IMG/VR virus record: IMGVR_UViG_3300022747_000006
Location: 1 to 49,661 of that record
DNA length: 49,661 bases
From: a virus
Reading direction: 5' to 3' (one strand)
A model generated the notes under the pieces. It saw nothing but the letters and a program-made list of their open reading frames with translations. It was not told the DNA's origin and searched no databases. Each line of letters starts with the position of its first letter. Position 1 is the stretch's first letter. Made by a program: the position numbers and the translations under genes. Of the stretch, positions 19,362 through 42,246 are shown piece by piece.

Positions 19362-19543
19362 ATTGGATTAACATCGCCTACCTCCTTTCGCTTAAGATCT
19401 CCGGCTGCAATTTCTAAAGCTACTTGTGCAGCTACGTGTTTAGCAAAAAGATAGCGATCAAAGACATAGCAAATATTAAATATTTCATCTGGAATGCCTA
19501 CCAAAGACATTGCATAGAGCTCATCAATTTTTTCTTTATTCAT
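19358..19543 (-). CDS. Hypothetical protein (within the polymerase insert)
   Basis: 61-aa ORF. Its stop TGA overlaps the start of the Pol C-fragment. Confidence 0.4.
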   Translation of the reverse strand: MNKEKIDELYAMSLVGIPDEIFNICYVFDRYLFAKHVAAQVALEIAAGDLKRKEVGDVNPM

Positions 19544-19718
19544 TTAAATCATCTACCACAAAAGGAACTGACCGTACATCTGGATATTTTGCAAAAAACT
19601 CTTCTTTGGTAATGTCTTTTCCGATAACAATCTCCTCATATGGAATATTTTTATTCAACAGTTTACTTTTTAGCACCATGCAAGCAGGACAATTGGGTTG
19701 TGAATAAACAGTTTTCAT
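19536..19718 (-). CDS. Glutaredoxin / NrdH-like redoxin (within the polymerase insert)
   Basis: 60 aa. MKTVYSQPNCPACMVLK (CxxC after a beta-strand) and RSVPFVV (cis-Pro loop region) fit a thioredoxin fold. Confidence 0.7.
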   Translation of the reverse strand: MKTVYSQPNCPACMVLKSKLLNKNIPYEEIVIGKDITKEEFFAKYPDVRSVPFVVDDLNE

Positions 19719-19900
19719 TTTCTCAACAATGCTGCAACAGGTTTCTCTGGAAAGCGATTGATTTGTACTTTCATTTCCTGAAACAAATCAGGATAGAATG
19801 ATTGGAAGTCTGCAAGCACTCGTCGTGCTCCATATTGTTGCATAGATGATGCCAAAGTTACCATCACGTCGTTATAGTCCAGAAGTTCTTGTTCATTCAT
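19715..19900 (-). CDS. Hypothetical protein (within the polymerase insert)
   Basis: 61-aa ORF, overlap-coupled on both sides. Confidence 0.4.
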   Translation of the reverse strand: MNEQELLDYNDVMVTLASSMQQYGARRVLADFQSFYPDLFQEMKVQINRFPEKPVAALLRK

Positions 19901-20109
19901 TTATCAATCCTATCATCAAAACAGGCACATCCACGTTCAAGGCATCCTATATCCATCTTTTGTGAAAGATTGACTATACTAGCCTCCCATCCACGTTTAA
20001 AGGCTGTATAGCGCCTATTAGCCAACTCCTGTCCCTCCTCGGTCATTGGAACTTGCCAAGATTCTGCTTCTCTCCATGCAAGGTATATATCCCGTTCTTC
20101 ATCAGTCAT
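19897..20109 (-). CDS. Hypothetical protein (within the polymerase insert)
   Basis: 70-aa ORF. The ATG at 20109 overlaps the end of the Pol N-fragment. Confidence 0.4.
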   Translation of the reverse strand: MTDEERDIYLAWREAESWQVPMTEEGQELANRRYTAFKRGWEASIVNLSQKMDIGCLERGCACFDDRIDK

Positions 20110-21235
20110 AATATTTACTCACAAAAATGTCTTGTAGTTCAGAGGCGAAGTTTTGCAAATTGGGTTTACTACTACTAAGCCTTCCTGTTTGAGCAATGGT
20201 TTGATTGAAGTTGCCATGTAACAAGCCAGGTTCCCAATGCATTTCTTCTCTAAGTTTCACTAGTCCGGTATAATAGGTTCCATTAAGTTTTTCTAGTTTG
20301 GAGAGTTCCAAGATGAGGTCTACAAGAGCACGTTTACCTTTCAGCTTACGTAAGGTAGATTCATCTACTGCATAATTACCTTCCTTAGCCATTTCACTGC
20401 CCTTCAATGGAGTGAACATACGAGGAAGCTTGTGCTCAATAATTATGTTTTTGTACTTGGGCTGCCCGGCTTTCTGTCCAGATTTAAAATACCCGATATG
20501 TTCCTTGCCATCTTCTTTAACTGTTCCGCCATAAAGAAAGGCAGACAAATGGTCATTAGAGGCAAAATTAATAGGAATGTTAGGATAGATAGCTTTGAGT
20601 TTTCCCTTAATCTCTGTGATCTTGTCATCCACCTCCTGTGATCGTTGTTTACAAAGCTGTTCGTCAAATGGAATGCCGTTGCCTTCCATTTCCTGTAGGA
20701 TTTGCAGGTCTTGACACATCAAGTAACAAAGCTTCACTTGGGCAGGAGACATAAGCTTTCGTTGTGCATGGTAACAAGCAAGTGTTAGCTCGGCATCTCT
20801 AGTCGCGTATTCTTCCAGCACATCCCAAGGGATTTCGTCTGTGTTAATTCCTTTATCCCAATACTCTGTTTTAACTACGTCGAGTTTAGGCTCGAAGCCA
20901 TACTTGAGAGCTGTTTCATTTAAGCTAGGCAGTCGATTCGTTTGGTTGGACAGGATGAACTCTGCGATTTGCACATCCCAGATTTGCTTTCGTCGCAAGA
21001 TTGATAGACCGTACTTGAGCAACCAGTGCAAGTCGAACTTGAAGTTGAATCCAATAACCAGTCGAACACCTTGGAGAAGATTTTGCACCAGAACAATGTT
21101 ATCACTATGATGAGCACCACTCCCAATGGTACTAGTAGGGCTAGCATAACTAATGCAAACAAGCTTGTTACGACTGTCATAAGCGTTCCCTTTATTCCAT
21201 GTTGTTGTTTCGGTATCGAGGGCTAAGACATTCAT
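20102..21235 (-). CDS. DNA polymerase I family, N-terminal fragment (3'-5' exonuclease plus the polymerase domain up to motif A)
   Basis: 377 aa with Exo I LALDTETT and TGRLSSSKPNLQNF (Pol I: TGRLSSTDPNLQNIP). It ends ...ELQDIFVSKYYD followed by TGA TGA. Confidence 0.85.
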   Translation of the reverse strand: MNVLALDTETTTWNKGNAYDSRNKLVCISYASPTSTIGSGAHHSDNIVLVQNLLQGVRLVIGFNFKFDLHWLLKYGLSILRRKQIWDVQIAEFILSNQTNRLPSLNETALKYGFEPKLDVVKTEYWDKGINTDEIPWDVLEEYATRDAELTLACYHAQRKLMSPAQVKLCYLMCQDLQILQEMEGNGIPFDEQLCKQRSQEVDDKITEIKGKLKAIYPNIPINFASNDHLSAFLYGGTVKEDGKEHIGYFKSGQKAGQPKYKNIIIEHKLPRMFTPLKGSEMAKEGNYAVDESTLRKLKGKRALVDLILELSKLEKLNGTYYTGLVKLREEMHWEPGLLHGNFNQTIAQTGRLSSSKPNLQNFASELQDIFVSKYYD

Positions 21236-21377
21236 TTAGTTTTTCAATTTCATTAGCTGCTTCCTCTAGTAGATCGGCCAGTCGATCTGGCTTCCCTTCC
21301 TGTACACTTTTTCTTGTGACGATTTGTCTACGTATTTGTGCACGGATACGCAGGCGTTCTATTAGATCATGCATCAT
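21192..21377 (-). CDS. Hypothetical protein
   Basis: The track ORF is 21192..21413. The ATG at 21377 (MMHDLIERLR...) overlaps the upstream stop and is the more plausible coupled start. Confidence 0.35.
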   Translation of the reverse strand: MMHDLIERLRIRAQIRRQIVTRKSVQEGKPDRLADLLEEAANEIEKLNECLSPRYRNNNME

Positions 21378-21603
21378 AATAGGTTGACATATGTACCTCA
21401 AAAGAAACATCATCCTTAGTAAATCCCTTGTCTACAAATTCTTGCATACAAGCATCACGAAAATCTTCTGCTCCTTCTAAGAAGGGAAATACTCCTACAG
21501 CAGTGGCAGAAGGATAACGCATAACAATGTAACAATTGGCTCGATGTTTTGGGAATCGCATTTTTACAAAAGGCCTTTCATTAAATATCTTCGTAGCGGG
21601 CAA
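21367..21603 (-). CDS. Hypothetical protein
   Basis: 78-aa ORF overlapping the helicase 3' end by 23 nt. Confidence 0.4.
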   Translation of the reverse strand: MPATKIFNERPFVKMRFPKHRANCYIVMRYPSATAVGVFPFLEGAEDFRDACMQEFVDKGFTKDDVSFEVHMSTYYDA

Positions 21604-22166
21604 TGCCCGGATTGATCAACACTTCACGCTTGCCATGGCGCTGGTCAGGAATGGTGTCTTCATCGCCAATAAGTTTATTCTTACTTGCATGGAGATAACG
21701 AACATTCTCATAACCGGCATCAGGAATCTTACCAATACCTACAATCCAATCTGCTTCTGCCTGTTTAGCTGTCTTGGCATTAGCAACGTGTCCCATGTTG
21801 AGCCACTTCTGGCCCTCACCGGTTCCGTCTGCTTGACACACAGCAATTACAGGACAGTATTCTTTGGCAAGTTCCCGTCCCCATTGATACATTGCACCAA
21901 GACGCAAGTCTTCACGGTCATTACTGAAGCCGTGTACCTTATCAATCTGGTCAAAGATAATTAGAGAGGGCTTGTACTGCTTACATACTTGCTCAACGGT
22001 GGACTTAGTGATAACCCCACTGTCAAAGATTTTATGCTTACCCTTAGTCTTCTCCATGAACTTAGTTCGATTGCCTTTAAGGTCGGCAAACAGCTGTGTC
22101 ATGTTCAGTCCAAGAGAGGCTTGATAACAACGGAGTTTTACTTTGTTACCTTGTTCTTCGTTATTA
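21581..22166 (-). CDS. Replicative (T7 gp4 / DnaB-like) helicase, exon 2
   Basis: The frame is open from 22166, upstream of the first ATG (22102), and reads (F)NNEEQGNKVKLRCYQASLGLNMTQLF...IIFDQIDKV (Walker B-like)...VIAVCQADGTGE...RYLHASKNK. The NNEE segment corresponds to the T7 gp4 segment LAMLEES that follows Walker A. Confidence 0.7.
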
Positions 22167-22899
22167 CTTGATGTTCGGAGTAGTTCGTTAAGCTACTCCC
22201 GGCTATGCCAGCTACATGTTCCCATGTAGAACAGACTATATCATCGTCCTTAGGACGTTCCGCACTTCCACTCACTTGAGTGTACGCCTTTCGGCTAGTC
22301 GTTACACCTTTATACATAACTATACAATTGCCCGTTCCAAATTTTTCCAATAACAGATCGAGTAACACCAAATTGATCAGCAACTTTTTGTTGCGTTTCC
22401 TCAGTGATTGTCTTAATCTGCTTAACCTGTTCAATAGTCAGTTTATTTTTAAACAGTCCGGTTTCATGAGCATGTCTAGTATTTTCTGACTTAGTTACCC
22501 ACTCTAGATTGGAGAGTAGATTGCAGGACTTGTCGCCATTTTTATGATTGACATCTAGATTAGGGGCATGTGCTGGAGCAAAGGTAGACAATACTACCCG
22601 ATGAACTAAGCACAGTCTTCCTTGCGGACGTTTCTCATTAAACAGTTTGACTACTTTGTATCCCTTTCCATTATCCACGGCAGAAAGTATTTTACCCTTC
22701 TTGTCGCTGCGAATAAGGCCATTAGGATTCACAGAGTAGTTTGGATAATCTGGAATTATTTTAAAATTACCGGCCATGTTGGGCCTCCTATATTGTGGTA
22801 GGTTGTTATGTATACTTGGCTCGGGATTACCTGTTCTAGGCTTCCCCCGAATTCACGGAATTTTCAAATAAGATTGCTCTTATAGGGGTCTATTAGTTA
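22167..22899 (-). mobile_element. Putative group I intron (733 nt) carrying an HNH homing endonuclease ORF
   Basis: The 5' exon ends in U (22900), which can wobble-pair with G22890 in a GGUU:GACC P1-like helix. The intron ends in G (22167). Joining the exons restores ...GPIIWF|NNEEQG... in frame (536+586 nt, 374 codons). The non-ORF parts are densely hairpinned (GCCgaaaGGC, CGTCCtaaGGACG, CTACATGggaaCATGTAG, GGAGTAGcttaacgaaCTACTCC). Confidence 0.6.
22310..22777 (-). CDS. HNH homing endonuclease (NUMOD4-like N-terminus, HNH, C-terminal HTH; I-HmuI-like architecture)
   Basis: 155 aa with YPNYSVNPNGLIRS (NUMOD4-like), VHRVVLSTF...VNHKNGDKSCNLLSNLEWVTKSENTRH (HNH) and QQKVADQFGVTRSVIGKIWNG (HTH). 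Confidence 0.85.
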   Translation of the reverse strand: MAGNFKIIPDYPNYSVNPNGLIRSDKKGKILSAVDNGKGYKVVKLFNEKRPQGRLCLVHRVVLSTFAPAHAPNLDVNHKNGDKSCNLLSNLEWVTKSENTRHAHETGLFKNKLTIEQVKQIKTITEETQQKVADQFGVTRSVIGKIWNGQLYSYV

Positions 22900-23435
22900 A
22901 ACCAGATGATGGGCCCGCTGTCAGGACTAAGTTGTTCAGCCATGAAAGTTGTTTCTGAAGCGAGGAATGTTGTTTTGCCCGTTTCGGGTCGAGCGAATAT
23001 AAATCCGAAATCGCCTTTGCGTAGGCTACCCAACATTTGATTAAGTGTTGATAAGCGCCATCTAAGTCCTTGTTGTTTGACTGCACTATCTGCAAGCTCC
23101 TCTAGATCGTCTGAAATGAACTCAAACTTTTCTTCCTTAGCAGCAACTTCCTGTGTCTTAAGGAAACCACTGAGCATATCACTCATCTTAGCAATCTCAA
23201 GCTTACCCTGAGTTACGTCATATGCTGCAAGAGAAATTTCTTTGAGTTGTTTGTTAGACAGGATGGAATTGATAAGGGTGTAGGTTGTTTCTGGTGAAAC
23301 TTCCAAGTCCTTAAGATTTTCAATCACACCAAGATAATAATCCTTGTCCTTATTGGACAAAGCAAACAACAAGTTAGCTAAGTCATGTACAGAAAGATTA
23401 TGTTGTTCTTCATTTTGAAGATGGTAGTTATTCAA
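22900..23435 (-). CDS. Replicative (T7 gp4 / DnaB-like) helicase, exon 1
   Basis: Walker A GFIFARPETGKTTF. If unspliced, the frame stops right after ...GPIIWFN. The listed TTG start (23435) has no RBS; see the finding on an upstream ATT at 23552. Confidence 0.7.
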
Positions 23436-23927: not shown

Positions 23928-24145
23928 ACTGGTATATCCTCTTGTACAGTTGGACAAACTGAGACATCTGTCCATGCAGCAAAGTAATGATTTAGACCTT
24001 CTTCATCTTTGCACCAGCAATACATACCATCCAGTTTGATGTATTTGTAGTATGCATCGTAATCTACTTCCTCACTATCTGGAGGAGTAGTGGGTTGCTC
24101 TTGTAAAAGAAAGGTTTGTCCTGATTTTAGTTCATAAAGTTTCAT
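23924..24145 (-). CDS. Hypothetical protein
   Basis: 73-aa ORF. The ATG overlaps the primase stop (ATGA). Confidence 0.45.
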   Translation of the reverse strand: MKLYELKSGQTFLLQEQPTTPPDSEEVDYDAYYKYIKLDGMYCWCKDEEGLNHYFAAWTDVSVCPTVQEDIPV

Positions 24146-24861
24146 TTCAAAAATTCCTGTAGTTCTTCTGTAGAATATTCCTTAGGATCTTTGGGAGTAA
24201 AAATTGTACTAGCATTCCATCCCAAAAACTTAGCTGCTTCTGCTATTTCACATGCTTCCTTCCACTTGTCATCATCCAACCACACGATTAAACGCTCGTA
24301 AAGGGGCCTTAAAGCGGCTAAACGAGAGCGTCCTATACTAGTCCCTAGGAGGGGCATTCCAGTGGCTACACGGCCCACCTTAATAGCTGACAAAACATCC
24401 TCAGTGAATACCAAAGTAGTACCTGTTCCATACCTTGTATCACTCAAAGACTTGTCTCCTATGTTGTAATACTTTGCTTTGCTTGCCCGTTTAGGATTAA
24501 AGTTTTTGGCTTGGATACAACAAAGGTGTCCGTCTTTGTCGTAGAGGGGGATGAGAAGTTGTTCCCATCCAGGACTCCATTTAAGCCCTGCATGTATAAC
24601 CTCGCGTCCCAATAGTCCATACGACGATAGCCAATTAGTTGCTCTTTCATCCAAAGTGGAATCTGCATCTGCTGGGAACTCCACTGCTGATTCATCATTG
24701 CTTCCTTCAGTCTGCCCATCACGTTCTCCTACAAAAGGTGATATGTTTGCTGATTCATAGTGGTGACAACCAAAACAGAAAGCACTTCCATCGGAATATC
24801 TACCTAGGTTATCCCTGCTTCCGCATGACGGACATGCCTCATGTTTTACAAATGTTGCCAT
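24142..24861 (-). CDS. DNA primase (T7-type zinc ribbon plus TOPRIM)
   Basis: CPSCGSRDNLGRYSDGSAFCFGCHHYE compares with the T7 gp4 segment CDNCGSSDGNSLFSDGHTFCYVCEKW. TOPRIM motifs LVFTEDVLSAIKV and IVWLDDDKWKEA. The ATG at 24861 has AAGGAG 7 nt upstream; the track start at 24894 is less likely. Confidence 0.8.
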   Translation of the reverse strand: MATFVKHEACPSCGSRDNLGRYSDGSAFCFGCHHYESANISPFVGERDGQTEGSNDESAVEFPADADSTLDERATNWLSSYGLLGREVIHAGLKWSPGWEQLLIPLYDKDGHLCCIQAKNFNPKRASKAKYYNIGDKSLSDTRYGTGTTLVFTEDVLSAIKVGRVATGMPLLGTSIGRSRLAALRPLYERLIVWLDDDKWKEACEIAEAAKFLGWNASTIFTPKDPKEYSTEELQEFLK

Positions 24862-25273
24862 TGTTCTTCTCCTTGGGTTTGGCTTCGATGGCAAGTCGGT
24901 ATGCTTTGCTCAGATACTCTTCATCTGGCTCCTGCACAGGTGCTGCGGGCAGAAATTGGCGAACCAAGCCTTCAATTGACGCGAAGCCTTTCTTGTATTG
25001 GTCGCGCCAAGAAACGGCCTCTGCTTTTGTTTTAAACAGCATCATTTCGTCCGTTGATGTGTGCCAACCGGCCCACGCCACAGGCTCCTGCTCTGGCTGC
25101 TCCAGTCTTGCTCGGATGGCGGTGATGGCTTTTTCGTACTTGGCACAAATGTCCTTGTCGACTTTCAGTCCGTATTTTTTAAAGTCAACGCCATAACCTT
25201 CTTCAAGTTCATTGGCCATTTCCAACGCCTTCAGCGCCTGCTCCATTAGTTGTTTGTTAGTCATGGTTGTCAT
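24839..25273 (-). CDS. Hypothetical protein
   Basis: The track ORF is 24839..25321. The ATG at 25273 (MTTMTNKQLMEQALKALE...) overlaps the upstream TGA (ATGA). This stretch is visibly GC-richer. Confidence 0.45.
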   Translation of the reverse strand: MTTMTNKQLMEQALKALEMANELEEGYGVDFKKYGLKVDKDICAKYEKAITAIRARLEQPEQEPVAWAGWHTSTDEMMLFKTKAEAVSWRDQYKKGFASIEGLVRQFLPAAPVQEPDEEYLSKAYRLAIEAKPKEKNNGNICKT

Positions 25274-25731
25274 CCTGTTGTTTTGGTGATGGCTGCACGG
25301 GCTTTTTGAATTGCGGCCCATTCGCCGTCATTCACATCACCGTTGTCGAACTCCGCTGACATTGCCTTCAGAGCATCCAGCAGCTCATTGCGATCGGCCA
25401 TCAGTGCGTTGAAGTGCGCAATGCAATCGATGTTGGCTAAACGCAGTCGCTCAAAGTCTCCAGCCTTATACGAATATTGTGATGGGATTCCTTTTTCGAG
25501 GCGATGCATCAGATTCACTGGGCCATATCCATCATCATCGCAATGAGCATTCCAATGACTGTCGATTTCCTCGGCAGCTGCAATCATCACAGAGCGTAGG
25601 TTTTCGTTTTCTTCATGCAATCGGCGGAGTTCTGCTGCGGATTTCAATAGAGTTTCTTTATCGCAATATTCATGGTTCAATTGCAAATCGTCAGCTAGTT
25701 TCAGCGCTTCTGGTTGTTGTGTGTCAGTCAT
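25270..25731 (-). CDS. Hypothetical protein
   Basis: The track ORF is 25270..25776. The ATG at 25731 (MTDTQQPEAL...) overlaps the stop of the small Cys-rich ORF. Confidence 0.45.
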   Translation of the reverse strand: MTDTQQPEALKLADDLQLNHEYCDKETLLKSAAELRRLHEENENLRSVMIAAAEEIDSHWNAHCDDDGYGPVNLMHRLEKGIPSQYSYKAGDFERLRLANIDCIAHFNALMADRNELLDALKAMSAEFDNGDVNDGEWAAIQKARAAITKTTG

Positions 25732-25903
25732 ACTCCTCTTCTCCTTCGTCATGCTCATCTGGTGCATAGCCATCAACGGTGTCTACATCATCCGATATGG
25801 TGGCCAAGCATTTGTTACACATATCTACATATGTGCCACTCTCTTTGAACTTACGAGTGGATTCTTGTGGAGACAAGATTGTATTGCAGCAAGAACAACG
25901 CAT
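25724..25903 (-). CDS. Small Cys-rich (zinc-ribbon-like) protein (59 aa, below the ORF-track cutoff)
   Basis: Peptide MRCSCCNTILSPQESTRKFKESGTYVDMCNKCLATISDDVDTVDGYAPDEHDEGEEEYD, with CxCC...CxxC and an acidic tail. It fills the gap between 25776 and 25913. Confidence 0.4.
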   Translation of the reverse strand: MRCSCCNTILSPQESTRKFKESGTYVDMCNKCLATISDDVDTVDGYAPDEHDEGEEEYD

Positions 25904-25912
25904 GATGTTTCC

Positions 25913-26587
25913 TTATTTCAAAGCAGCAGCCCAACGACTGCATCCGTTATTGTGAATGATACTGTTGTAAAACTCCGTTTTACTCTTGGAATTAAATCCA
26001 TTAATATCATAGTACCAGCATCCTGTTGCTTTCTCTGGAACTTTAAATCCCTGAGCTTTCACAAGAGCCTTGGCATCTGCACTGAACGACGTTTCAATGG
26101 TACACAGAGGAGACTCATCACTAAAAATACTGTCCCAATCTGTAAACTCATACTTGTAGTTTGCTACACGAATGAGCATAGAGACAGCAGAGATTTGGTA
26201 AGTGGATTCCCACAAAGCATTGGGGATATGCAACACTACCTGTTTACTTCCTTGTGTGTAAACAGACAATTTAGTGTTACAGTCTTCCAACAGTCGTTTA
26301 TTTAGTACAGCAATGTTCTTCTTAAAACGAGTGATCTGGTCAATGTTGGTTAGATGAAAATACAAACCGGCCTTATTGAACTTCACATCATTCTGGAATG
26401 AATAGATTCCAAACTTATACTGTGCCTGCTTCCATGCAACAACATCATTAAAGAAGTCCCTACACTTAATCAATCCTGATTGAGATGTGAGGGTTTTCTT
26501 GTCACGATGCATAATGCGCCACCGCAGGGGATTTACCTGAGCAACTTCACCATACTTGGTATTGTGTGTAATGTCAAGTTTAAACAT
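25913..26587 (-). CDS. Hypothetical protein, last gene of the amidoligase cluster
   Basis: 224-aa ORF. The ATG overlaps the ATP-grasp stop (ATGTTTAA). I recognise no family. Confidence 0.5.
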   Translation of the reverse strand: MFKLDITHNTKYGEVAQVNPLRWRIMHRDKKTLTSQSGLIKCRDFFNDVVAWKQAQYKFGIYSFQNDVKFNKAGLYFHLTNIDQITRFKKNIAVLNKRLLEDCNTKLSVYTQGSKQVVLHIPNALWESTYQISAVSMLIRVANYKYEFTDWDSIFSDESPLCTIETSFSADAKALVKAQGFKVPEKATGCWYYDINGFNSKSKTEFYNSIIHNNGCSRWAAALK

Positions 26588-27293
26588 ATTTCACCATCTC
26601 GTCAAGATATTTTTCCACATTAGTGCCTTGAATGCCGGGAGCACTGTTCACTTCAATTACAAACAGCTCGTTTTTCTTTTCGTTGTAGCCAATGTCAACT
26701 CCTCGGAAGTCACTGTAGGACACTTTTGCTGCTCGGAGAGCCAGCTCTTGTAGGCCATTTGGAATGTCATCGACTTGTTGGACAAACACGTAGCCATTTG
26801 CAAGGTTGCGGATTTTGGTGTCTCGCTCCCCTTCAAATCCTTTGCGTCTTTTCTTTTCTGTGACATTCACCACCTCATCTTTGAACACATGGACACGGAA
26901 CTCACGTTTCTTCTTCTTGTACTTAGTGTAAACAGGACAGATAGGAATTTGATCATCTGTTTCTGGTTCGATTACTACAATCCCTTTACCACAAGAAGAA
27001 TTGAGATATTTTCGACCAAACACAGTTGAGTTTTCATTCAACCAGTCTACGACATCATTTGGATTTGCTGTAAATTCCAGTGCGGGGATGTCATTTGCCT
27101 TATACCACTGATACTGAGTAAGTTTGTCAACACTTTGACCATACTTAAACTGCTTACGGATGAGGGATGGCTTGGTTGTGCGGAAAATCTTACCACGTTT
27201 GAGACGAGTTGATAGACCTTGAGCAATTAGCTTCAGACTGGCACTCTTCAATGTGGAATTAGTGCAGAGTAACGAGGGCTTTTTCTTGTTCAT
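26580..27293 (-). CDS. ATP-grasp family ligase
   Basis: About 237 aa with VFGRKYLNSSCGKGIVVI, REFRVHVF, IRNLANGY and a C-terminal ELFVIEVNSAPG (E.N metal-binding end of ATP-grasp folds). The ATG at 27293 with an AGGA RBS is preferred over the track start at 27323. Confidence 0.65.
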   Translation of the reverse strand: MNKKKPSLLCTNSTLKSASLKLIAQGLSTRLKRGKIFRTTKPSLIRKQFKYGQSVDKLTQYQWYKANDIPALEFTANPNDVVDWLNENSTVFGRKYLNSSCGKGIVVIEPETDDQIPICPVYTKYKKKKREFRVHVFKDEVVNVTEKKRRKGFEGERDTKIRNLANGYVFVQQVDDIPNGLQELALRAAKVSYSDFRGVDIGYNEKKNELFVIEVNSAPGIQGTNVEKYLDEMVKYV

Positions 27294-28479
27294 CAAGTTT
27301 ATCCTGAATGTATTTAGAACCAATGACTGTATGTTTGGATGGTTTGAATGCTATTGGAAGGGGTGCTGAATTCTCCAAAACAAGTGTTGCACGACGAGCC
27401 TTGGTGTCATAGAGAACATCTACAACACGACCAGACCACAGAGTACCATCTAACTTAGAGCTAGTAAGATTCAAAGGCTTGAGGTCAACGGTAGAAACTA
27501 CCATATGATCTTCTTTAAGTTTGTCTGATGAACCCATCAAACGAAACTCTGTTTCACCTTGTTCCTCAAGAGCCGGAAAATTCGCCTCAATATAGTCTTC
27601 CACCCACCACTCGATTTTTGTACCGATGTGTTTGCGGCGAAATCGCTTATACGCATTCTTAGACAGGCCCTCCTTATTAGAAGTTTGCACAATCTTCGTA
27701 AATGTTTTGACCGTATTGACCCCAGTAGCCGCCTTGGTATACTGGGGAATAGGCTTTTTTGGCTCAATTTTCTCCTCTTTCAATTCGTTCTTGTCAAGAT
27801 CAAATGAAAGCAGGGTAAACTCAGGCACAACCTTAATTTCAAACTTCTTAGGATCATACCCATTGCGTAACAAAATCCAGAAAAGCATTGGAGCCTCACT
27901 GGCATAATACCAACCATTGTCGGTTGATACATAAGCCAATGGCCGCTCCTTGTTGCGGAACAACCGCACTGTGTTGGTACGTTGGTCGTACATGGAAACA
28001 GCATATGCACCACTCACTTTGCCCAGAGTTTCAGCAAACTTCTCAGCATAGTCTTCCTCAGCAAATGCCTCATAGAACACATGGGCCAAGGCCTCGCTGT
28101 CAACCTCTGTGTCTTTCAATGATTTATGATTGTACAATGTACCGTTATGTACCATTGCAAACTCATCATTGATGACAAAGGGGTGAGCAGACTGGTCTTC
28201 AATCTTGCCAACAGTTTTCTTGCGATTGTGCCCAACAAGAGCTTTACCACGAGCAAACATCGCTCGTTCCATGTCACTGCCCTTATATGTTTGAGCAAAC
28301 CATGCTGCCTCAGTGGCCTCCTTCATGATATGGAAAGACGAATCTTTCTCAACACCAATAATACCTGTGGAGTCATCACCACGTAGGGCATTCACATACA
28401 ATAGTTGATTGAACATATCCTCATGCTGTTTCAACAGGCCAGAAGTATACTTAGAAATTACACCAACAATACCACACAT
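27259..28479 (-). CDS. Class II (Ntn) glutamine amidotransferase with an uncharacterised C-terminal domain
   Basis: 406 aa. The N-terminal MCGIVGVI (Cys2 nucleophile), RGDDSTGI, HNRKKTVG and MVHNGTLYN are typical of the GATase_2/6 fold. The last ~170 aa match no family I recognise. Confidence 0.75.
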   Translation of the reverse strand: MCGIVGVISKYTSGLLKQHEDMFNQLLYVNALRGDDSTGIIGVEKDSSFHIMKEATEAAWFAQTYKGSDMERAMFARGKALVGHNRKKTVGKIEDQSAHPFVINDEFAMVHNGTLYNHKSLKDTEVDSEALAHVFYEAFAEEDYAEKFAETLGKVSGAYAVSMYDQRTNTVRLFRNKERPLAYVSTDNGWYYASEAPMLFWILLRNGYDPKKFEIKVVPEFTLLSFDLDKNELKEEKIEPKKPIPQYTKAATGVNTVKTFTKIVQTSNKEGLSKNAYKRFRRKHIGTKIEWWVEDYIEANFPALEEQGETEFRLMGSSDKLKEDHMVVSTVDLKPLNLTSSKLDGTLWSGRVVDVLYDTKARRATLVLENSAPLPIAFKPSKHTVIGSKYIQDKLDEQEKALVTLH

Positions 28480-28488
28480 AATGAGTCC

Positions 28489-29259
28489 TTAGATCAAAGA
28501 AAGTTTAACGTCCAACAAACCATTTTGAATGATCTGAGGAAGTGCTGGCTCAAGAGCACGACAACGCGCACTATGTCCAAACACCTTATGGAACCAGCGC
28601 TTGTGGGAATTAGTATCTGCAATCTCAACTGGTGTGATTACAGAATCCTTACTGAGTTGCCACAAACTTTCCAAGGCAGTAAGCCACTCTTGCAGCAAAG
28701 AAGCATCGTCTGTGCCTTGCAAATGACGGAACTCCATTGTACCATACTTAGCCAAAGGAAGCATATTCAATGCAGTGTACTTATGCCAGCGAGGAATCAG
28801 GGAAGGCAACTGGAATCGGTAAATCATTGGCAAGAATGTCTCAGACAATGGAACACAATGAATGTTATTACGACGGTCTTTGTTCACCATAGAGAAGAAC
28901 ACTTCCTCGAAGATGGCATACAAATACAGCATGTTCTTGACTTGCTGTTCATTGAAGCTACGACAATTCACATGCACATGGGTTGATGTTCGAGAAGAAA
29001 AGGCATCTTCACGATTATGGAACACAATACTTGCCTGAAGATCTTTGAATTGATCTAGCAAATGAGGAACCTGCATTGGAACAGAGACAAACTCACAACC
29101 ATCATTACGCAAACTACCGTCTTCAATTGCGTTGAAGTAGGGAGACTTGGGACGCTTCGCTACAGATTCAATCTCACACTCAATCCCTGCAAACATTGGA
29201 ATAGCTTCTTCATTCAGCTTACTTTGCTCCAAGCCAAACAATTCAAATACTTTTGTCAT
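28489..29259 (-). CDS. Amidoligase_2-type (glutamine synthetase-like) carboxylate-amine ligase
   Basis: 256 aa with FAGIECEIES, EDGSLRNDGCEFVSVPM and RTSTHVHVN, the characteristic motif triad of that family. Confidence 0.7.
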   Translation of the reverse strand: MTKVFELFGLEQSKLNEEAIPMFAGIECEIESVAKRPKSPYFNAIEDGSLRNDGCEFVSVPMQVPHLLDQFKDLQASIVFHNREDAFSSRTSTHVHVNCRSFNEQQVKNMLYLYAIFEEVFFSMVNKDRRNNIHCVPLSETFLPMIYRFQLPSLIPRWHKYTALNMLPLAKYGTMEFRHLQGTDDASLLQEWLTALESLWQLSKDSVITPVEIADTNSHKRWFHKVFGHSARCRALEPALPQIIQNGLLDVKLSLI

Positions 29260-29858
29260 TGTGCCACCTTAAAATGAGAACCATTAGCAATCTCTGTCAA
29301 CTCTGGTACAAAGATTGGAGAACGGAGACGGATGAGTTTTGATGTGGTATCGACTTCACCAATAGGAACCATGTCCACATACAAACCTTTGCTACGTGGA
29401 ACATAGGCAATACGTGAAGTCAGCACAGTGGAGGTCATACGTCCTTTGTTAGCAATAGCTTCGTCCAATGACGGAAACTTCTGCTTAGAAACATAGGCTT
29501 TCAGTGTATCAAATCCCAGTTGCATGGCCTCTGTAGTACCATCACTTCGCAGAGAATACAACCGTGTATTTGAATCACTCAGACCACGTTGATATTGCTT
29601 GGCAGGATGACGAGACAAAGCGACAGCACGTTTACCAAGTTGGAAAAAGCTTTTGTGTGGAAGAAGGAAGTCAACCTCATAGGGATGTTCATCACTCAAG
29701 CACAGTTCAAAATCCACATGGTCTTCGTCGACACCACACACAGCATCGGGAGAAACATAACGAATGAAGAAAAGTTTCTCACCCATTTCAGAGAACTTGA
29801 CATAGGTATTCTTGTAATACCGATTAATGTCTTCCCAGTTTGATGACATAAAAATCAT
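29256..29858 (-). CDS. Hypothetical protein within the amidoligase cluster
   Basis: 200-aa ORF with ATGA overlap to the upstream gene. No recognisable family. Confidence 0.5.
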   Translation of the reverse strand: MIFMSSNWEDINRYYKNTYVKFSEMGEKLFFIRYVSPDAVCGVDEDHVDFELCLSDEHPYEVDFLLPHKSFFQLGKRAVALSRHPAKQYQRGLSDSNTRLYSLRSDGTTEAMQLGFDTLKAYVSKQKFPSLDEAIANKGRMTSTVLTSRIAYVPRSKGLYVDMVPIGEVDTTSKLIRLRSPIFVPELTEIANGSHFKVAQ

Positions 29859-30604
29859 ACTACCTCCAGATTGTATTGCTTGACCAAATCCATAGCAACT
29901 TGTTTGTTGTTATTGTTGATGGCATCCAAGATACGCTCTTGTTCTGCAACAACATCCACATTGCTTTGAACAGCACGTTCTGTGTTGCGCCATGCCCAAC
30001 GAATAAGTTTCTCGTCAAAGATCCAAAAGTTTGAAAGAGTTCGATATTCCACCCCATAAGACTTAGCACGGAAAGCACCAGCTTTACCGTACAATTGTTT
30101 ACGCAAAACACCATCGTCCATCAGGACAGAAGGCACACCGAGGAACAAGTCCATATTGCGAATCACTTCCAATGGGTCACGTTTAGTTTCCACATGGATA
30201 TGACCACCTGCACTACGCATAAGGGGATGCGGAGGGTTGGGTTTCTTGTTCACATCTTTAGTCCATGCATCGAAGTCAGGCTCACATCCAAAGATGTAAG
30301 CGGCTGGATGCTGCATTTGCTCCTCAGGAAACACAATGCAGGACAGCTTGGAAAATGATAGACCGTCCACATATTCCAGACTCTTCTTCATCACAGCCTG
30401 AATGTGCTGCACAAATTCATCTGCTGATGCTGCCGGTGGAATACCATACTCAAGAGAAACATTGTCCTCCTGCAATGTATAGCCATCAGGCATGTCAGGA
30501 ATTTGCAAAGGATTCCATTTATCCGCATTGATGTAGCCAATGGCAGACACGGGATTGCCTGCATGGTCTTGCAGGAACACTTCTGGATCAGAACCGAGAC
30601 GCAT
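29855..30604 (-). CDS. phiEco32-like COOH-NH2 ligase (type 2 amidoligase)
   Basis: 249 aa. The N-terminal MRLGSDPEVFL, EDNVSLEYGIPPA, FGCEPDFDAW, GGHIHVE and GVEYRTLSNFW resemble that phage-restricted ligase family. Confidence 0.6.
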   Translation of the reverse strand: MRLGSDPEVFLQDHAGNPVSAIGYINADKWNPLQIPDMPDGYTLQEDNVSLEYGIPPAASADEFVQHIQAVMKKSLEYVDGLSFSKLSCIVFPEEQMQHPAAYIFGCEPDFDAWTKDVNKKPNPPHPLMRSAGGHIHVETKRDPLEVIRNMDLFLGVPSVLMDDGVLRKQLYGKAGAFRAKSYGVEYRTLSNFWIFDEKLIRWAWRNTERAVQSNVDVVAEQERILDAINNNNKQVAMDLVKQYNLEVV

Positions 30605-30606
30605 GG

Positions 30607-31020
30607 TTATACCTCGAAATTAATGGTTTTAACAGTGATTACTTTGGAAACAGAGATGGCTTTCATCACAACAAAGCCACAATCCGGTACTTGTTTGGCA
30701 AGACGTTCTGCTTCTTTGGTGGCTTCTGCAAGAGTGTAGTGCGGAACAGGAGTATTGGAGCCTACAAAACATCCCGCAGGAGTCTGCTTAATGACAATGT
30801 ATGTCCCATCCTTTTTAGGTTTTGCATCACCATTAAGAATTGTTTTGTTTTCGTCGTTCACTTTTTCCACCTTTTTTAAAACAAAGCCACCAAAACACAG
30901 TCCAATGTATTTTGCACCATTGTTTTGCTTACATCCTTGTTTGAAATCACACTGATTACAAGCAGCATTATATCCAGTATACTTGACTTTCCGATAGTCA
31001 ACTCCTTCAATCATGCCCAC
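30607..31020 (-). CDS. Hypothetical protein within the amidoligase cluster
   Basis: 137-aa ORF overlapping the upstream gene end by 10 nt. No recognisable family. Confidence 0.5.
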   Translation of the reverse strand: MGMIEGVDYRKVKYTGYNAACNQCDFKQGCKQNNGAKYIGLCFGGFVLKKVEKVNDENKTILNGDAKPKKDGTYIVIKQTPAGCFVGSNTPVPHYTLAEATKEAERLAKQVPDCGFVVMKAISVSKVITVKTINFEV

Positions 31021-31688
31021 TCCTCAGCAAAAAGATATTCTGCAATTGCTTCATTACAGAATGAAACAAAGCGACTATTGGGTGTTGACCATTCTGGATG
31101 GCCCTGAATAGCCAATGCCTTAATGTCTGGAAAGAAAACAATCTCAGGTTCTTTGAATGTTTTGTTGGCCACAGCCTCACGCAAATGAGCAGGAGTTTCT
31201 GCTTCCTGTCCATAATACACACGACTCAGAGGTTCATCACTCCACGCCAACAATTCATGATTGGTGCCATGAACATCCAGCATTTGGTGATGTGAGGATG
31301 TCACAGTGAACAACTCACCATGAGAAGTCATAACATCATGGTCTCCCATTGTATGACCAGCAACATGCTGCAACAGCTTACCGCCAGCAAAAGCGCACAG
31401 AAACTGTGCACCACGACACACACCAATCATTGGGATGCCGTGTGCCTTGCAGTATTTCATTGCACGCCATTCCCACAAGTCACGGTCAGAAGGCATGGTA
31501 GGAGCACCACTGAAACGATTGTGTGTTTGTCCATAGAAGGATGGATGAATGTCAGTTCCACCCCACAAGACAAGCGCGTCAATCTTTGATAGACCGTCTA
31601 GTCCGCAATTGGTTTTCTCGTCGAACACCATGTCAAAGGGGAAGATGTTCTGTCCATTGCCCCATGGTGAAAAGCCTAGTGTTTTCAT
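31011..31688 (-). CDS. Class I glutamine amidotransferase-like / peptidase C26 (gamma-glutamyl hydrolase-like)
   Basis: 225 aa with ALVLWGGTDIHPSFYG, the nucleophile elbow IGVCRGAQFL and the His motif AIQGHPEW. Confidence 0.8.
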   Translation of the reverse strand: MKTLGFSPWGNGQNIFPFDMVFDEKTNCGLDGLSKIDALVLWGGTDIHPSFYGQTHNRFSGAPTMPSDRDLWEWRAMKYCKAHGIPMIGVCRGAQFLCAFAGGKLLQHVAGHTMGDHDVMTSHGELFTVTSSHHQMLDVHGTNHELLAWSDEPLSRVYYGQEAETPAHLREAVANKTFKEPEIVFFPDIKALAIQGHPEWSTPNSRFVSFCNEAIAEYLFAEEWA

Positions 31689-31840
31689 TCTCGTTCCTCC
31701 AAATATTCAATCAGTGAGTACAGGACAATTAGCAAGTCTGTTGCAAACAGATGTGTGTAGCTAATCGTGTAGCCTTGGAAGTATGCGTAAACATCTACGA
31801 AGAATCCAAGGATAAATACAATTAAGAATGTTAAGTACAT
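31685..31840 (-). CDS. Small two-TM membrane protein
   Basis: The track ORF is 31685..31900. The ATG at 31840 (MYLTFLIVFILGFFVDVYAYF...DLLIVLYSLIEYLEERE) lies directly after the upstream stop. Its TGA overlaps the next ATG (ATGA). Confidence 0.4.
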   Translation of the reverse strand: MYLTFLIVFILGFFVDVYAYFQGYTISYTHLFATDLLIVLYSLIEYLEERE

Positions 31841-31841
31841 A

Positions 31842-32264
31842 TTAGCATACCACGGCAAAGGGATCTTTCTTTGCCAAGTAGTTGGACGTACAGAACACAT
31901 GCTGTGAACGATTCTTCAATGGGGCAAATGTAACCACCATTGGATTGTCATTCTTCCACACATGGTCATATGAGAAGTCCTTATAAGACCGTGACACACC
32001 GACAACAACCACCATACCATACTCATCATAGTCTTTCTTGATGGATGGATAGGCAGTGTCGCCTGTCTGCATACCGCATTCAGTAGACAATTTCTGTACC
32101 AAAGCATTGCGACGCATATATTCTGCTGGAGTAATCTTACGCAGCTTGGCTTGCTTGATTTCCTCAGGAGAATAGATAACATCATCCGACTTATTGGCAG
32201 TCATCTGATAGGGAAGGGCTGACGTAACAATGGTACGCTTAGAAGGAAAATGCTGTTGAATCAT
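31842..32264 (-). CDS. Hypothetical protein
   Basis: 140-aa ORF in the co-directional early block. Confidence 0.5.
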   Translation of the reverse strand: MIQQHFPSKRTIVTSALPYQMTANKSDDVIYSPEEIKQAKLRKITPAEYMRRNALVQKLSTECGMQTGDTAYPSIKKDYDEYGMVVVVGVSRSYKDFSYDHVWKNDNPMVVTFAPLKNRSQHVFCTSNYLAKKDPFAVVC

Positions 32265-35071: not shown

Positions 35072-35964
35072 GCAAACTACATTACTACAGGCGTAGTTTA
35101 CCCCTGAGTGCCCATCCCTCATTTTCACAGGCGTGCCGTACGATTACGGCTTGTGGCAAGTATAAAGGAACACCCTTACACAAGCCTTACAAGACTAGGG
35201 AACATCCCCACAAAGGCCTCTAGTATATCTGTAACCCGGCATCACCCGGTTATTCTCACCAGACTAGATTTCTCTGCTGTCTTGCCCTCAATTATAGGGG
35301 GGTTTGCTTACACCAACCTTACAACTTAGCTTTATAGGAAAGACAGTTGTAACAAAGTGTAACAGACACACCCAACATCAAGGACGTGGGAGCAGTGTAC
35401 ATGAAAAGAGGGGACGTGTCTGTCACATTGGAGACACCTAGAATATGGGGGTGGGACGTGTAGGTAAGCCCTTGATTTTAAAGTGTGATACTGGAAACAT
35501 CCCTCTTATGTCCTATTTCACCACATTTTAGGAAGGGGGGTGGGGGGAAAACTTGGGTTGGACTAATTGTGCGTAATGCACCATCCTACGCTGCTACTAT
35601 TTTTCAAAAAAGGGGACGTTAGTATGGGGAACGATTTAAACGAGTTTTAAGAGGTTTTTAATAGGAGTGGCTACATACCCCTATCCCTACCCATTACAGG
35701 AGCTTCTAGCATGGTTTAAAGCTGTTTTAGAGCTATTGCTGCTGCTCGGCTTAGGCCTCGCATGAAGTTACAAGCGTTATGGAAACCTTATTGTTTCTTT
35801 TGGACAGGAAGATGTTTGTTCTGTTTTGTTCAGCGCTTCGCGCGTATTGTATTTATTTAAATAATATATTTATTAAATAATATATATATATATAGTTATA
35901 TTAGGGTATCATACTTCTTGTTAAATGTCAAGATATATTTTTATAAATATTTTTTGTAAAACTA
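35072..35964. promoter_or_regulatory. ORF-poor divergent control region (candidate origin, packaging site or long leader)
   Basis: No credible ORF on either strand. Contents are itemised in the finding on the 35072..36098 control region. Confidence 0.5.
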
Positions 35965-35993
35965 TTGACTTTTGAATAAAACTATGGTATAAT
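35965..35993 (+). promoter_or_regulatory. Near-consensus sigma70 promoter with extended -10 for the rightward (structural) arm
   Basis: TTGACT (35965..35970), a 17-nt spacer whose last three bases are TGg, then TATAAT (35988..35993). An AT-rich UP-like block lies upstream. The first gene starts at 36099 after a GGAGG RBS. Confidence 0.75.
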
Positions 35994-36098
35994 GATAAGT
36001 ATACACTCGCTGCTTTTACAAGAGCAGCTCGTAAATAGACTAACAATCCTGTTAAAGAAGGAACTTCACATGGCTGCGCCCGACAACGGAGGTCAAAC

Positions 36099-36746
36099 AT
36101 GGCTTTGACCGACAATCCCAATACTAAAAATCGTAAACCTAAAATCCGTGCTGTTGATGCTAAAACCAACAAATCTTGGAGTGACAAACAAAAACTTGAG
36201 GCTGTTCAGTCTTGGTTGTTGCTTGGCAATTTAGCCCTAACCAGTCGTATTCTTGGAATTCCTGAAATTACGCTGCGCGTATGGAAAACCACAGACTGGT
36301 GGAAAAACGTAGTGGACGACATTAAACTTCAAGAAGACATGCAAATGTCTGCCAAACTGAAGAAAATTGTTGAGGCTAGTTTGGGGGCTGTTGAAGACAG
36401 GCTCACCAATGGTGATTGGATTTATGACCAAAAAACAGGGCAAATGATTCGTAAACAAGTGAACATGAAAGATGCTCACAAGGTTGCTGTTGACTTGATG
36501 GATAAGAAAGCAGTACTTGAAAAGGCTGCAGCGCCAGCAACAGTGGAACAAAAAGACGAAGATAGGTTGCTTAAACTGGCAGAGAAATTTGCTGAATTTG
36601 TCACAAAGAAAAAGGACGTAGTGATTGACGTCACTGACGTACAGGAGAAACAACATGCCGAGCAAGGAACGGTGGGAGAAAATGACTCCAGAACAGAAAG
36701 CTCAGTATTCAGTGAAAGCACGGGAATGGAAACAAAAGAACCGTGA
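36099..36746 (+). CDS. Terminase small subunit candidate (HTH protein)
   Basis: 215 aa and the first gene of the arm, upstream of terL. HTH-like LLLGNLALTSRILGIPEITLRVWK, followed by a charged coiled-coil region. Confidence 0.5.
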   Translation: MALTDNPNTKNRKPKIRAVDAKTNKSWSDKQKLEAVQSWLLLGNLALTSRILGIPEITLRVWKTTDWWKNVVDDIKLQEDMQMSAKLKKIVEASLGAVEDRLTNGDWIYDQKTGQMIRKQVNMKDAHKVAVDLMDKKAVLEKAAAPATVEQKDEDRLLKLAEKFAEFVTKKKDVVIDVTDVQEKQHAEQGTVGENDSRTESSVFSESTGMETKEP

Positions 36747-37098
36747 AAAATGGAATGAATATCAAAAAGAACGGTACTTAAAAGAAGTTGGAGTTCTTTC
36801 TAATAATATGCAGCATACTCCTGAATCTCGTGCACAATGGCATCGAGATAAAAGTAATGCCCGGTGTACTAGAGCAAAACAAGCCCGCTTTACCGATGAA
36901 TTAACAGACTTAATTACAAAAGAAGCACATGATTTACGTAAATTGAGAAATCTTTTTACAGGAATAGAGTGGCATGTAGATCATATTATTCCACTTAAGG
37001 GTGCAGACGTATGTGGTTTGCATATTTGGTCAAATCTTGCAGTGATACCTAAAGTAGAAAATCTGCGAAAGGGGAATAAAAATTCCTTATATGCGTAA
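36655..37098 (+). CDS. HNH endonuclease
   Basis: EWHVDHIIPLKGADVCGLHIWSNLAVIPKVENLRKGNK. The ATG at 36655 follows AGGAG; the track start at 36625 is less likely. It overlaps the terS-like 3' end. Confidence 0.75.
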   Translation: MPSKERWEKMTPEQKAQYSVKAREWKQKNREKWNEYQKERYLKEVGVLSNNMQHTPESRAQWHRDKSNARCTRAKQARFTDELTDLITKEAHDLRKLRNLFTGIEWHVDHIIPLKGADVCGLHIWSNLAVIPKVENLRKGNKNSLYA

Positions 37099-37390
37099 TG
37101 GAAAAAGAGATTACAAGACGGAGTATGCGAAGTACCACTCGACTCCGGAACAGCGACACAATCGGTCGGAACGGACAACCCTGAGGAATGAAGCCAATGC
37201 AAAAGGCATTACTCACAAAGGGGACGGAAAAGACCTTGACCACAAAAAACCCTTATCTAAGGGGGGCTCCAACACGTTGGCCAATGCCCGAGTGGTATCA
37301 GCAAGTACCAACCGAAGTTTCAGTCGAAACGCAGACGGAAGTTTGCGAAACCAGCAAAGCACACGAGAGCGTAAAGCAAAACACAAATGA
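37091..37390 (+). CDS. Small HNH endonuclease, terminase-associated type
   Basis: 99 aa with KDLDHKKPLSKGGSNTLANARVVSASTNRS (DH...GG.N...N...N). The stop overlaps the terL ATG (ATGA). Confidence 0.6.
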   Translation: MRNGKRDYKTEYAKYHSTPEQRHNRSERTTLRNEANAKGITHKGDGKDLDHKKPLSKGGSNTLANARVVSASTNRSFSRNADGSLRNQQSTRERKAKHK

Positions 37391-38904: not shown

Positions 38905-38906
38905 AT

Positions 38907-40925: not shown

Positions 40926-41131
40926 ACAAAGCAGATTTTGTAGATTGGAAACGTCACCCGGTCACTCAGGTGGTTTTCAGTCAATTAAAAGCCCGTATTC
41001 AGGATTTGCAAGACATGCTTGGGGAGAGTGCAGGACAAAACCCTCTCCAAGACACACAATTTGTAGGTGCAATTAAAGCTTACAAAGACATGTTGTTGAT
41101 TGATTTTGAAGAAACTGAGGAGACTCAATGA
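40922..41131 (+). CDS. Hypothetical head-module protein
   Basis: 69-aa ORF with a TTG start overlapping the portal stop (TTGA). Confidence 0.35.
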   Translation: MNKADFVDWKRHPVTQVVFSQLKARIQDLQDMLGESAGQNPLQDTQFVGAIKAYKDMLLIDFEETEETQ

Positions 41132-41451: not shown

Positions 41452-41461
41452 GGAGGCCTAG

Positions 41462-42244: not shown

Positions 42245-42246
42245 TT

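Follow-up and report, generated by a model that had tools for sequence, protein, structure and literature searches.

A stretch of viral DNA of 49,661 nucleotides (IMG/VR record IMGVR_UViG_3300022747_000006; hereafter the window, meaning the whole of this stretch) was analyzed with respect to a cluster of open reading frames (ORFs) that encodes carboxylate-amine ligases, amidotransferase-fold proteins and proteins of no recognizable family. The sequence is identical to that of the ENA contig ERZ27251980 k141_1437. Since an exact direct repeat of 127 bp (1-127 and 49535-49661) joins both ends, the window is a circularly closed, complete phage genome of ~49.5 kb. The plus strand carries the structural genes (terminase, portal and head-closure protein), and the minus strand carries the early, amidoligase, replication and nucleotide-metabolism genes. 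The eight ORFs of the cluster (g1–g8), which the initial annotation of this DNA had described as one unit, span 25913-31688, all on the minus strand:

g1, 31011..31688, minus strand: class I glutamine-amidotransferase-fold thiol hydrolase of the Peptidase_C26 type
g2, 30607..31020, minus strand: insert specific to the window, 135-137 aa, containing a CxxC motif
g3, 29855..30604, minus strand: phiEco32-type COOH-NH2 ligase, a GCS2/YbdK-like carboxylate-amine ligase
g4, 29256..29858, minus strand: conserved, mostly beta protein of ~200 aa in the slot between two ligases resembling glutamine synthetase (GS) and glutamate-cysteine ligase (GCS)
g5, 28489..29259, minus strand: Amidoligase_2, a GS-like carboxylate-amine ligase of 256 aa
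g6, 27259..28479, minus strand: N-terminal nucleophile (Ntn) class II glutamine amidotransferase with a linker and a C-terminal domain, 406 aa
g7, 26580..27293, minus strand: RimK-family ATP-grasp ligase of the alpha-L-glutamate-ligase type, 237 aa
g8, 25913..26587, minus strand: phage-only protein with an apparently new fold

The genes form a tight operon, in which five junctions overlap (by 4, 4, 4, 35 and 8 nt) and the other two leave gaps of 2 and 9 nt, and every motif quoted in the initial annotation was found in the translations. A Shine-Dalgarno sequence is recognizable for seven of the eight genes and is weak upstream of g8. Few promoter-like sites were scored, 11 where 21.9 would be expected, and no internal terminator was convincing, a strong one being located farther upstream (34110-34086). 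In independent gene calls, g7 begins with the ATG at 27293 (237 aa), although its longest ORF reaches back to a TTG at 27323, and g2 begins with the ATG at 31014. These are the more likely starts of the two genes.

The five enzyme families proposed at first reading all withstood profile searches. The Pfam matches of g1, g3, g5, g6 and g7 exceed the curated cut-offs, and the PHROG matches agree with the Pfam assignments. In addition, the catalytic and ligand-binding residues are intact, being at least 95% conserved across 19-25 homologues, depending on the gene.

For g1, the Pfam match to Peptidase_C26 (68.2 bits) exceeds that to GATase (31 bits), and the best NCBIfam models, all below threshold, include gamma-glutamyl-CDP-amidate hydrolase at the top and also gamma-glutamyl-GABA hydrolase (PuuD). 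The triad, formed by C91 in GVCRGAQ together with H197 and E199 in an H197-P-E199 arrangement, is conserved at the above level (n = 19). g1 probably cleaves gamma-glutamyl amides.

For g3, the match to PF14395 reached 51.7 bits (cut-off 25) and that to phrog_3815 an E value of 6.5e-72. This is the most conserved gene of the cassette, with identities of 50-83% within the clade of the window and of 33-43% to MW202697, PaP3 and phiEco32, and the residues D6, E8, E46, E52, E108, H135, H137, E186 and R188 are conserved (n = 25). For g5, the corresponding matches are PF12224 (29.4 bits, cut-off 22) and phrog_7469 (E 8e-38), and E27, E29, E31, R51, H94, H96, E118, E176 and R178 are conserved (n = 23). 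Neither g3 nor g5 has a relative among PDB sequences. For g7, the matches are Pfam RimK (37.7 bits, cut-off 21) and phrog_2599 (E 6.5e-45), with K157, D210, E224 and N226 conserved (n = 25). The NCBIfam models nearest to g7 are MptN, CofF, RimK and LysX.

For g6, Pfam GATase_6/7 covers residues 1-200 only. The N-terminal domain matches PurF and GlmS among PDB sequences and GlmS, PurF and AsnB among NCBIfam models. The residues C2, R33, H84-N85-R86, N112-G113 and D127 are conserved (n = 23), and they correspond to Cys1, Arg73, Asn98-Gly99 and Asp123 of the glutamine site of GlmS. C2 is the N-terminal nucleophile, and R86, N112-G113 and D127 are the residues for glutamine binding, so that the glutamine site is complete. 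The rest of the protein had been described as a domain of ~170 aa without a recognizable family. Residues ~226-406 indeed have no Pfam or PDB match and contain no SIS, phosphoribosyltransferase or Asn-synthetase domain, but the region is not one domain: the Ntn domain (1 to ~225) is followed by a variable linker and then by a conserved C-terminal domain of ~100-120 aa, which opens with a basic SKNxFKRFRK segment. As a separate observation, His is the last residue of g6 in most of the clade relatives that were aligned (TLH, SLH, LVH, AVH, SVH or VCH), with varying preceding residues; the site lies at 27259-27270 in the window, with homologues in our loci L003, L004 and L009-L013.

The conservation of these residues shows a cassette of three acyl-phosphate-type ligases, an Ntn glutaminase and a C26 thiol hydrolase, each predicted from its sequence to be catalytically intact. 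These results support, at the level of families, the initial proposal of a phage-encoded, multi-enzyme, ATP-dependent amide-bond system with glutamine or gamma-glutamyl chemistry. Since the NCBIfam scores of g1, g6 and g7 are far below the equivalog cut-offs, the specific substrates of the model enzymes cannot be transferred to them.

The three remaining proteins, g2, g4 and g8, which had been set apart as orphans, have no Pfam family. The slot position of g4 is kept in every locus. Family-to-family comparisons of the slot proteins with hhalign gave weak but collinear, full-length matches (E 5e-4, 3e-4 and 0.004), among them those of g4 with PaP3 ORF47 (E 5e-4) and with the Kuravirus gp85 family (E 0.004), over ~150 columns, and all three families have in common an N-terminal D[FI]xxYYxxT[YW] motif. 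A clear homologue of g4 is present in phage QDWS535 (E 1e-12), and the match to the slot protein of MW202697 was not significant. The AlphaFold2 model of g4 is confident (predicted local distance difference test score, pLDDT, 91.6) and mostly beta, and a Foldseek search of the PDB returned nothing significant (best E 0.1); similarities to small beta-barrels of the Spt5/eIF5A kind were too weak in Foldseek to be used. No PDB sequence matched g4 either. It is possibly an adaptor or a substrate-binding subunit.

For g8, 88 homologues were found, none with a Pfam family. At E <= 1e-3, a search of 1.84 billion representatives assigned 555 representative clusters to this family, which in GTDB genomes was found only in three phage-like contigs of metagenome-assembled genomes (MAGs). 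The AlphaFold2 model has a pLDDT of 96.6 and a predicted template modeling (TM) score of 0.93. In Foldseek searches, the best PDB match had an E value of 0.19 with TM scores below 0.25, and BFVD returned an ortholog only, the matches to a GAP52 protein (E 0.047) and to an 'amidoligase' (E 0.36) being too weak to use. Structure prediction thus gave confident models for both g4 and g8 without a structural relative, and sequence and profile searches of the two proteins against PDB sequences yielded nothing useful. Seven polar residues of g8 (E14, Q17, C42, D44, D48, S133 and H212) are invariant and persist in the distant homologue UOF80670 of MW202697 (hhalign probability 96, E 5e-9); they look like an active site. 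When the profiles of g4 and g8 were compared by hhalign with additional proteins of PaP3 (ORF41, 44, 49 and 50) and phiEco32 (gp76, 78, 87, 88 and 89), no relationship was seen.

For g2, no homologue was found in ~35 related loci or in GenBank phages, and only phrog_17352, a PHROG without an assigned function, matched weakly. Related loci were collected from IMG/VR, eleven via g3 and twenty via g8, and were supplemented by metagenome contigs and by three MAG contigs that had been mis-binned. In the relatives, g1 and g3 abut or have a different small ORF between them. Conversely, the string g1-g3-g4-g5-g6-g7-g8 is kept in all relatives whose contig reaches far enough, and g8 forms its 3' end wherever enough upstream DNA is present: among the twenty IMG/VR loci with g8, the string is complete from g1 in 14 and cut by the contig end in five, and the last has only a wrapped-around 3' gene end. 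Since g2 is absent from every related locus, the conserved unit is one of seven genes (g1 and g3–g8) and not eight.

The initial eight-gene boundary also missed two conserved flanking genes; when the flanking ORFs were scanned against Pfam, PHROG and NCBIfam, no family was matched:

orf140, 31842..32264, minus strand: conserved protein of 140 aa directly upstream of g1
orf59, 25724..25903, minus strand: four-Cys zinc ribbon of 59 aa with a strongly acidic C-terminal tail, downstream of g8

In tblastn searches, orf140 adjoins g1 in 13 of 16 clade loci; it was not found in MW202697, PaP3 or phiEco32, and is a possible extra member of the module. The gene for orf59 lies downstream of g8 in 15 of the 16 clade loci, directly adjoining it in most and 0.3-1 kb further on in several. 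In MW202697 it comes directly after the homologue of g8, and QDWS535 has an unannotated homologue at 35246-35398, ~280 nt downstream of the ATP-grasp gene. The PaP3 locus and the 30-77 kb region of phiEco32 gave no homologue, although both carry the core cassette. The residues C3, C6, C29 and C32 of orf59 are invariant, whereas the last residues of its acidic tail of ~27 aa vary (D, E, Y, N, K, H, C or V), and no PDB match was obtained. It is possibly a member of the module, as an acceptor or carrier, or else a replication accessory protein. With both flanking genes, the conserved block extends from ~25724 to 32264, minus g2. Between orf140 and g1 lies a possible uncalled ORF of 51 aa (31685-31840, minus strand) with two hydrophobic stretches, which overlaps the start of g1 by 4 nt and for which no homologue was found in the related loci.

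In the flank tabulation of the clade loci, the small neighbors u_97, g2, d_168 and d_160 were never conserved. Since such small genes turn over while the cassette is kept, its synteny does not merely reflect close kinship of the IMG/VR loci.

The same core extends to distant phages. The order of COOH-NH2 ligase, ~200-aa protein, Amidoligase_2, class II glutamine amidotransferase and RimK-like ATP-grasp ligase, followed by the primase/helicase, is also found in phiEco32, PaP3/LUZ24 and QDWS535, and MW202697 carries the core genes in the matching order and genomic position. In the window, as in PaP3, phiEco32, MW202697 and QDWS535, the cassette sits between the early genes and the primase/helicase module. 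Searches by tblastn with the cassette ligases gave matches in 316 and 335 GenBank phage records, whereas megablast of the cluster against GenBank phages returned nothing because this phage is too divergent. The named hosts of the phages with a COOH-NH2 ligase are overwhelmingly Gram-negative, with Pseudomonas, Escherichia, Vibrio, Aeromonas, Proteus and Salmonella dominating. The initial view of the cluster as an undescribed system could therefore not be maintained, since the cassette, its order and its position already occur in phiEco32, PaP3/LUZ24, QDWS535 and over 300 GenBank phage records; that the neighborhood is conserved across phages was borne out, both in the ~35 loci and in the cultured phages. 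The cassette is known in kind and computationally described, and it is experimentally uncharacterized.

Among cultured phages, the Alcaligenes phage vB_Af_QDWS535 (OK172329.1) is most closely related to the window phage; its portal is 56% identical, a capsid-like protein 69% and TerL 58%. Because this relative carries the cassette (35246-44432), a betaproteobacterial host is suggested for the clade of the window, and QDWS535 is available as an experimental system.

Compared with the PaP3 and phiEco32 versions, in which the core genes follow the order seen in the window, with a slot protein of matching position and size as the probable counterpart of g4, the core proteins of the window are only 26-43% identical and are more compact: g5 has 256 aa versus 367-398, g6 has 406 aa versus 517-676, and g7 has 237 aa versus 296-397. 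The two proteins of 315-400 aa encoded upstream (PaP3 ORF49/50 and phiEco32 gp87/88) have no counterparts in the window. The accessory genes also differ. PaP3, phiEco32 and QDWS535 carry GGACT, a gamma-glutamylamine cyclotransferase, whereas tblastn matched no AIG2/GGACT gamma-glutamyl cyclotransferase in MW202697, in the window itself or in any locus of its clade. The window clade and MW202697 have the C26 hydrolase g1, and so does QDWS535, where the gene is annotated 'peptidase' and is accompanied by GGACT without g8; the loci of PaP3 and phiEco32 lack this hydrolase. The window instead has the C26 hydrolase upstream and g8 with the zinc ribbon downstream, and by its gene content appears to be an intact variant of the cassette: C26, g8 and zinc ribbon, and no GGACT. 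Over five lineages, a small sample that is not phylogenetically independent, g8 and GGACT are mutually exclusive. The occurrence of g8 in genomes without a gamma-glutamyl cyclotransferase suggests that it may take over the gamma-glutamyl-removal step there.

The cassette has been described in podoviruses as a seven-gene 'peptidoglycan modification cassette', with reference to Hardies 2013 and Iyer, under the hypothesis that it changes the cell surface and keeps out superinfecting phages (PMC5498523). It is also described in the comparative genomics of UFV-P2 and LUZ24 (PMC3890496). In two further papers, a link to superinfection is credited to Iyer et al. 2009 (PMC10580990, PMC11706807), in one case via cell-wall modification (PMC10580990), and both papers state that the function of the cassette 'remains to be explored'. 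This link goes beyond the peptide-like metabolites or tags that the initial annotation gave as the predictions of Iyer et al. In the phiEco32, LUZ24-PaP3 and RIO-1 cassettes, as in the window, the function is only predicted.

The window thus holds its own copy of the conserved podovirus amidoligase cassette, and we give an even chance to the reading that this cassette encodes a cytoplasmic, ATP- and glutamine-dependent pathway that builds or edits a glutamate-containing peptide or amide on a small acceptor. The cassette is transcribed together with the early/middle genes, directly upstream of the primase/helicase, and its enzymes would act in the cytoplasm on one low-molecular-weight acceptor containing glutamate. 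A small acceptor is favored because most members of these families have small-molecule substrates. g5 would phosphorylate a carboxylate, which ammonia freed from glutamine by g6 would convert to a carboxamide. Since g6 has no acceptor domain of its own and its gene always directly follows that of Amidoligase_2, in the window as in MW202697, PaP3, phiEco32 and QDWS535, g5 and g6 most likely form a glutamine-dependent carboxylate amidation unit. g3 and g7 would add two more amide or peptide bonds, one of the gamma-glutamyl type and one of the alpha-glutamate type. Later, g1 would remove or trim the gamma-glutamyl group, and g8 may also remove it in this variant.

Glutamyl chemistry is supported by the proximity of g1 to gamma-glutamyl-amide hydrolases and of g7 to alpha-L-glutamate ligases among the NCBIfam models, and by GGACT, which PaP3, phiEco32 and QDWS535 carry as the alternative accessory gene. 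In putrescine utilization by E. coli, the GS-like PuuA installs a gamma-glutamyl amide that the C26 hydrolase PuuD then removes, and in butirosin biosynthesis a gamma-glutamyl protecting group is installed by the ATP-grasp enzyme BtrJ and removed by the GGACT-like BtrG. The cassette would have a similar pairing of ligase and remover, and g1 resembles PuuD. By analogy with these pairs, the accessory hydrolases (C26, GGACT and possibly g8) point to a gamma-glutamyl amide that would be installed and later removed or trimmed. The window is not orthologous to either pair, however: equivalog scores are far below the cut-offs, there are three ligases and not one, there is an extra Ntn amidotransferase, and there are no acyl carrier protein, decarboxylase or oxidase genes.

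The leading candidate for a specific target, and the only one published, would be a peptidoglycan stem-peptide precursor that is modified to alter the envelope or block superinfection. Such a target fits the predominantly Gram-negative named hosts and the precedents of MurT/GatD, AsnB1/LtsA and Aslfm, which carry out glutamine-dependent amidation of the stem peptide or ATP-grasp addition of an amino acid on cytoplasmic precursors. This is the chemistry that the published peptidoglycan hypothesis would seem to need. Unlike MurT/GatD and AsnB1/LtsA, however, the window has no Mur-ligase fold, and its class II amidotransferase has no asparagine-synthetase domain; compared with the peptidoglycan ligases, the cassette proteins show no sign of binding UDP-MurNAc-peptide or lipid II.

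Several points weigh against the proposed pathway or this target. The target is proposed by analogy, since no cassette protein looks like a Mur ligase, a racemase or an enzyme anchored in the membrane, and none has a domain resembling those that bind UDP-sugars. In addition, the GGACT and C26 enzymes characterized so far act on L-gamma-glutamyl compounds, whereas peptidoglycan is gamma-D-glutamyl. The RimK and GS-like ligases also act on proteins, as RimK does on S6 and PafA with Pup. Adjacency of the genes is the basis for the proposed order of the reactions and for pairing g5 with g6, and the roles of g4, g8 and the C-terminal domain of g6 could change the picture. Finally, in agreement with the initial annotation, full-text literature searches found no product, substrate, target or phenotype of the cassette established by experiment, ~17 years after its first in-silico description.

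The precedents of RimK and PafA bear on the best alternative, in which the ligases would extend or modify an acidic C-terminal tail of a protein, either orf59 as a LysW-like carrier or tagged substrate, or a host or phage protein, and g1 and g8 would reverse the modification or release the product. Peptide tags were reportedly considered by Iyer et al. in 2009, the GS-like ligases include the Pup ligase PafA, and g7 belongs to the RimK/LysX family. In the LysW/LysX systems, a RimK-family ATP-grasp ligase occurs near a protein of ~55-60 aa with a ribbon and an acidic tail, as do g7 and orf59, and orf59 has the layout of LysW, an N-terminal CxxC...CxxC ribbon followed by the ~27-aa acidic tail. 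Moreover, orf59 is kept at the ATP-grasp/g8 end in the clade, MW202697 and QDWS535, whereas other small neighbors are lost. On the other hand, orf59 has no sequence similarity to LysW, and its tail end varies, unlike the invariant EDWGE of LysW. No downstream kinase, reductase or aminotransferase genes are present. orf59 was not found in the PaP3 and phiEco32 versions of the cassette, and it also adjoins replication genes, acidic tails being typical of replisome accessory proteins. An assignment of orf59 as a LysW homologue was not supported, as hhalign aligned only a trivial CxxC stretch and the tail termini vary. A protein-directed function appears unlikely. A fuller version, in which orf59 would be the scaffold, the three ligases would build on its tail, g4 would be the adaptor, and g8 would be a new gamma-glutamyl-releasing enzyme in place of the cyclotransferase, is less probable still; if true, the phage would encode a counterpart of the LysW kind of biosynthesis on an amino-group carrier, or of protein tagging.

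It is about equally improbable that the genes are auxiliary metabolic genes that boost or rewire the glutamine, glutamate or gamma-glutamyl metabolism of the host (glutathione-like compounds or polyamine conjugates) without a dedicated phage product. The set of folds, as assigned here by family matches, does parallel GshA/GshB with the gamma-glutamyl cycle, and PuuA/PuuD. Several genome papers also class the genes as auxiliary metabolic genes (PMC10945688, PMC10580990, PMC11706807). However, the proteins are highly divergent from cellular enzymes, as seen from the NCBIfam scores and from the lack of PDB relatives for g3 and g5; the phage-only g4 and g8 belong to the cassette; and the fixed gene order in distant phages favors a dedicated pathway over such a role.

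A modification of nucleic acids, in which an amino-acid or amide moiety on a DNA base, a nucleotide precursor or RNA would shield the genome from restriction, had been among the options raised initially. The cassette does lie in the replication and nucleotide-metabolism arm, the C-terminal domain of g6 opens with a basic segment, and amidoligase and amidotransferase genes co-occur with thymidine-hypermodification genes on metagenomic contigs (PMC8989533). However, palindromes are strongly avoided in the window (Mann-Whitney, p = 1.6e-4 for 4 bp and 3.6e-11 for 6 bp). The mean z of palindromic versus non-palindromic words over the whole window is -1.74 versus +0.12 for 4-mers and -0.73 versus 0.01 for 6-mers, and GGTACC is absent where 10.8 copies would be expected, GATATC is present once (10.1 expected), and GATC has 92 occurrences (151 expected). 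The 30-77 kb region of phiEco32 avoids palindromes likewise. Such avoidance indicates DNA exposed to type II restriction. Restriction-modification resistance is reported for Kuraviruses (PMC11990801), and site avoidance by itself may explain it. In addition, no 5-hydroxymethyluridine (5-hmU) DNA kinase, aGPT-Pplase/glycosylase, dUMP hydroxymethylase, DpdA or similar gene was found among the ~45 ORFs of the window that were scanned with Pfam, PHROGs or NCBIfam, and the thymidylate synthase is an ordinary ThyX. DNA hypermodification is therefore disfavored, and the wider reading is the least probable of those considered.

The cassette is among the most widespread multi-enzyme modules in lytic podoviruses, being present in over 300 cultured phages and common in metagenomes, and its carriers include therapeutic Pseudomonas Bruynogheviruses and E. 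coli Kuraviruses. The identity of its product would settle the choice between cell-wall remodeling, protein tagging and a metabolite, and would give a function to PF14395 and PF12224. To this question, which is addressable in cultured phages, the window contributes a compact variant together with the confident models of g4 and g8, and the complementary distribution of g8 and GGACT points to an interchangeable step. By itself, the window opens no new field.

The replication genes downstream of the cassette are fragmented across 18660-23435 on the minus strand. The features of this arm are as follows:

24142-24894, minus arm: primase, with three small ORFs between it and g8
22893-23435 and 21581-22102, minus strand: DnaB-like helicase in two ORFs
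22310-22777, minus strand: HNH/NUMOD4 homing endonuclease, which splits the helicase ORFs
20102-21235 and 18660-19361, minus strand: family-A DNA polymerase in two ORFs, with small ORFs between them
16669-17052: second HNH

A polymerase gene in two parts is likewise reported for UFV-P2 (PMC3890496). In the structural arm, an ORF of 1539 aa (6554-11173, plus strand) has no PHROG match, and is ~25% identical to the large protein gp19 of QDWS535 over ~800 residues.

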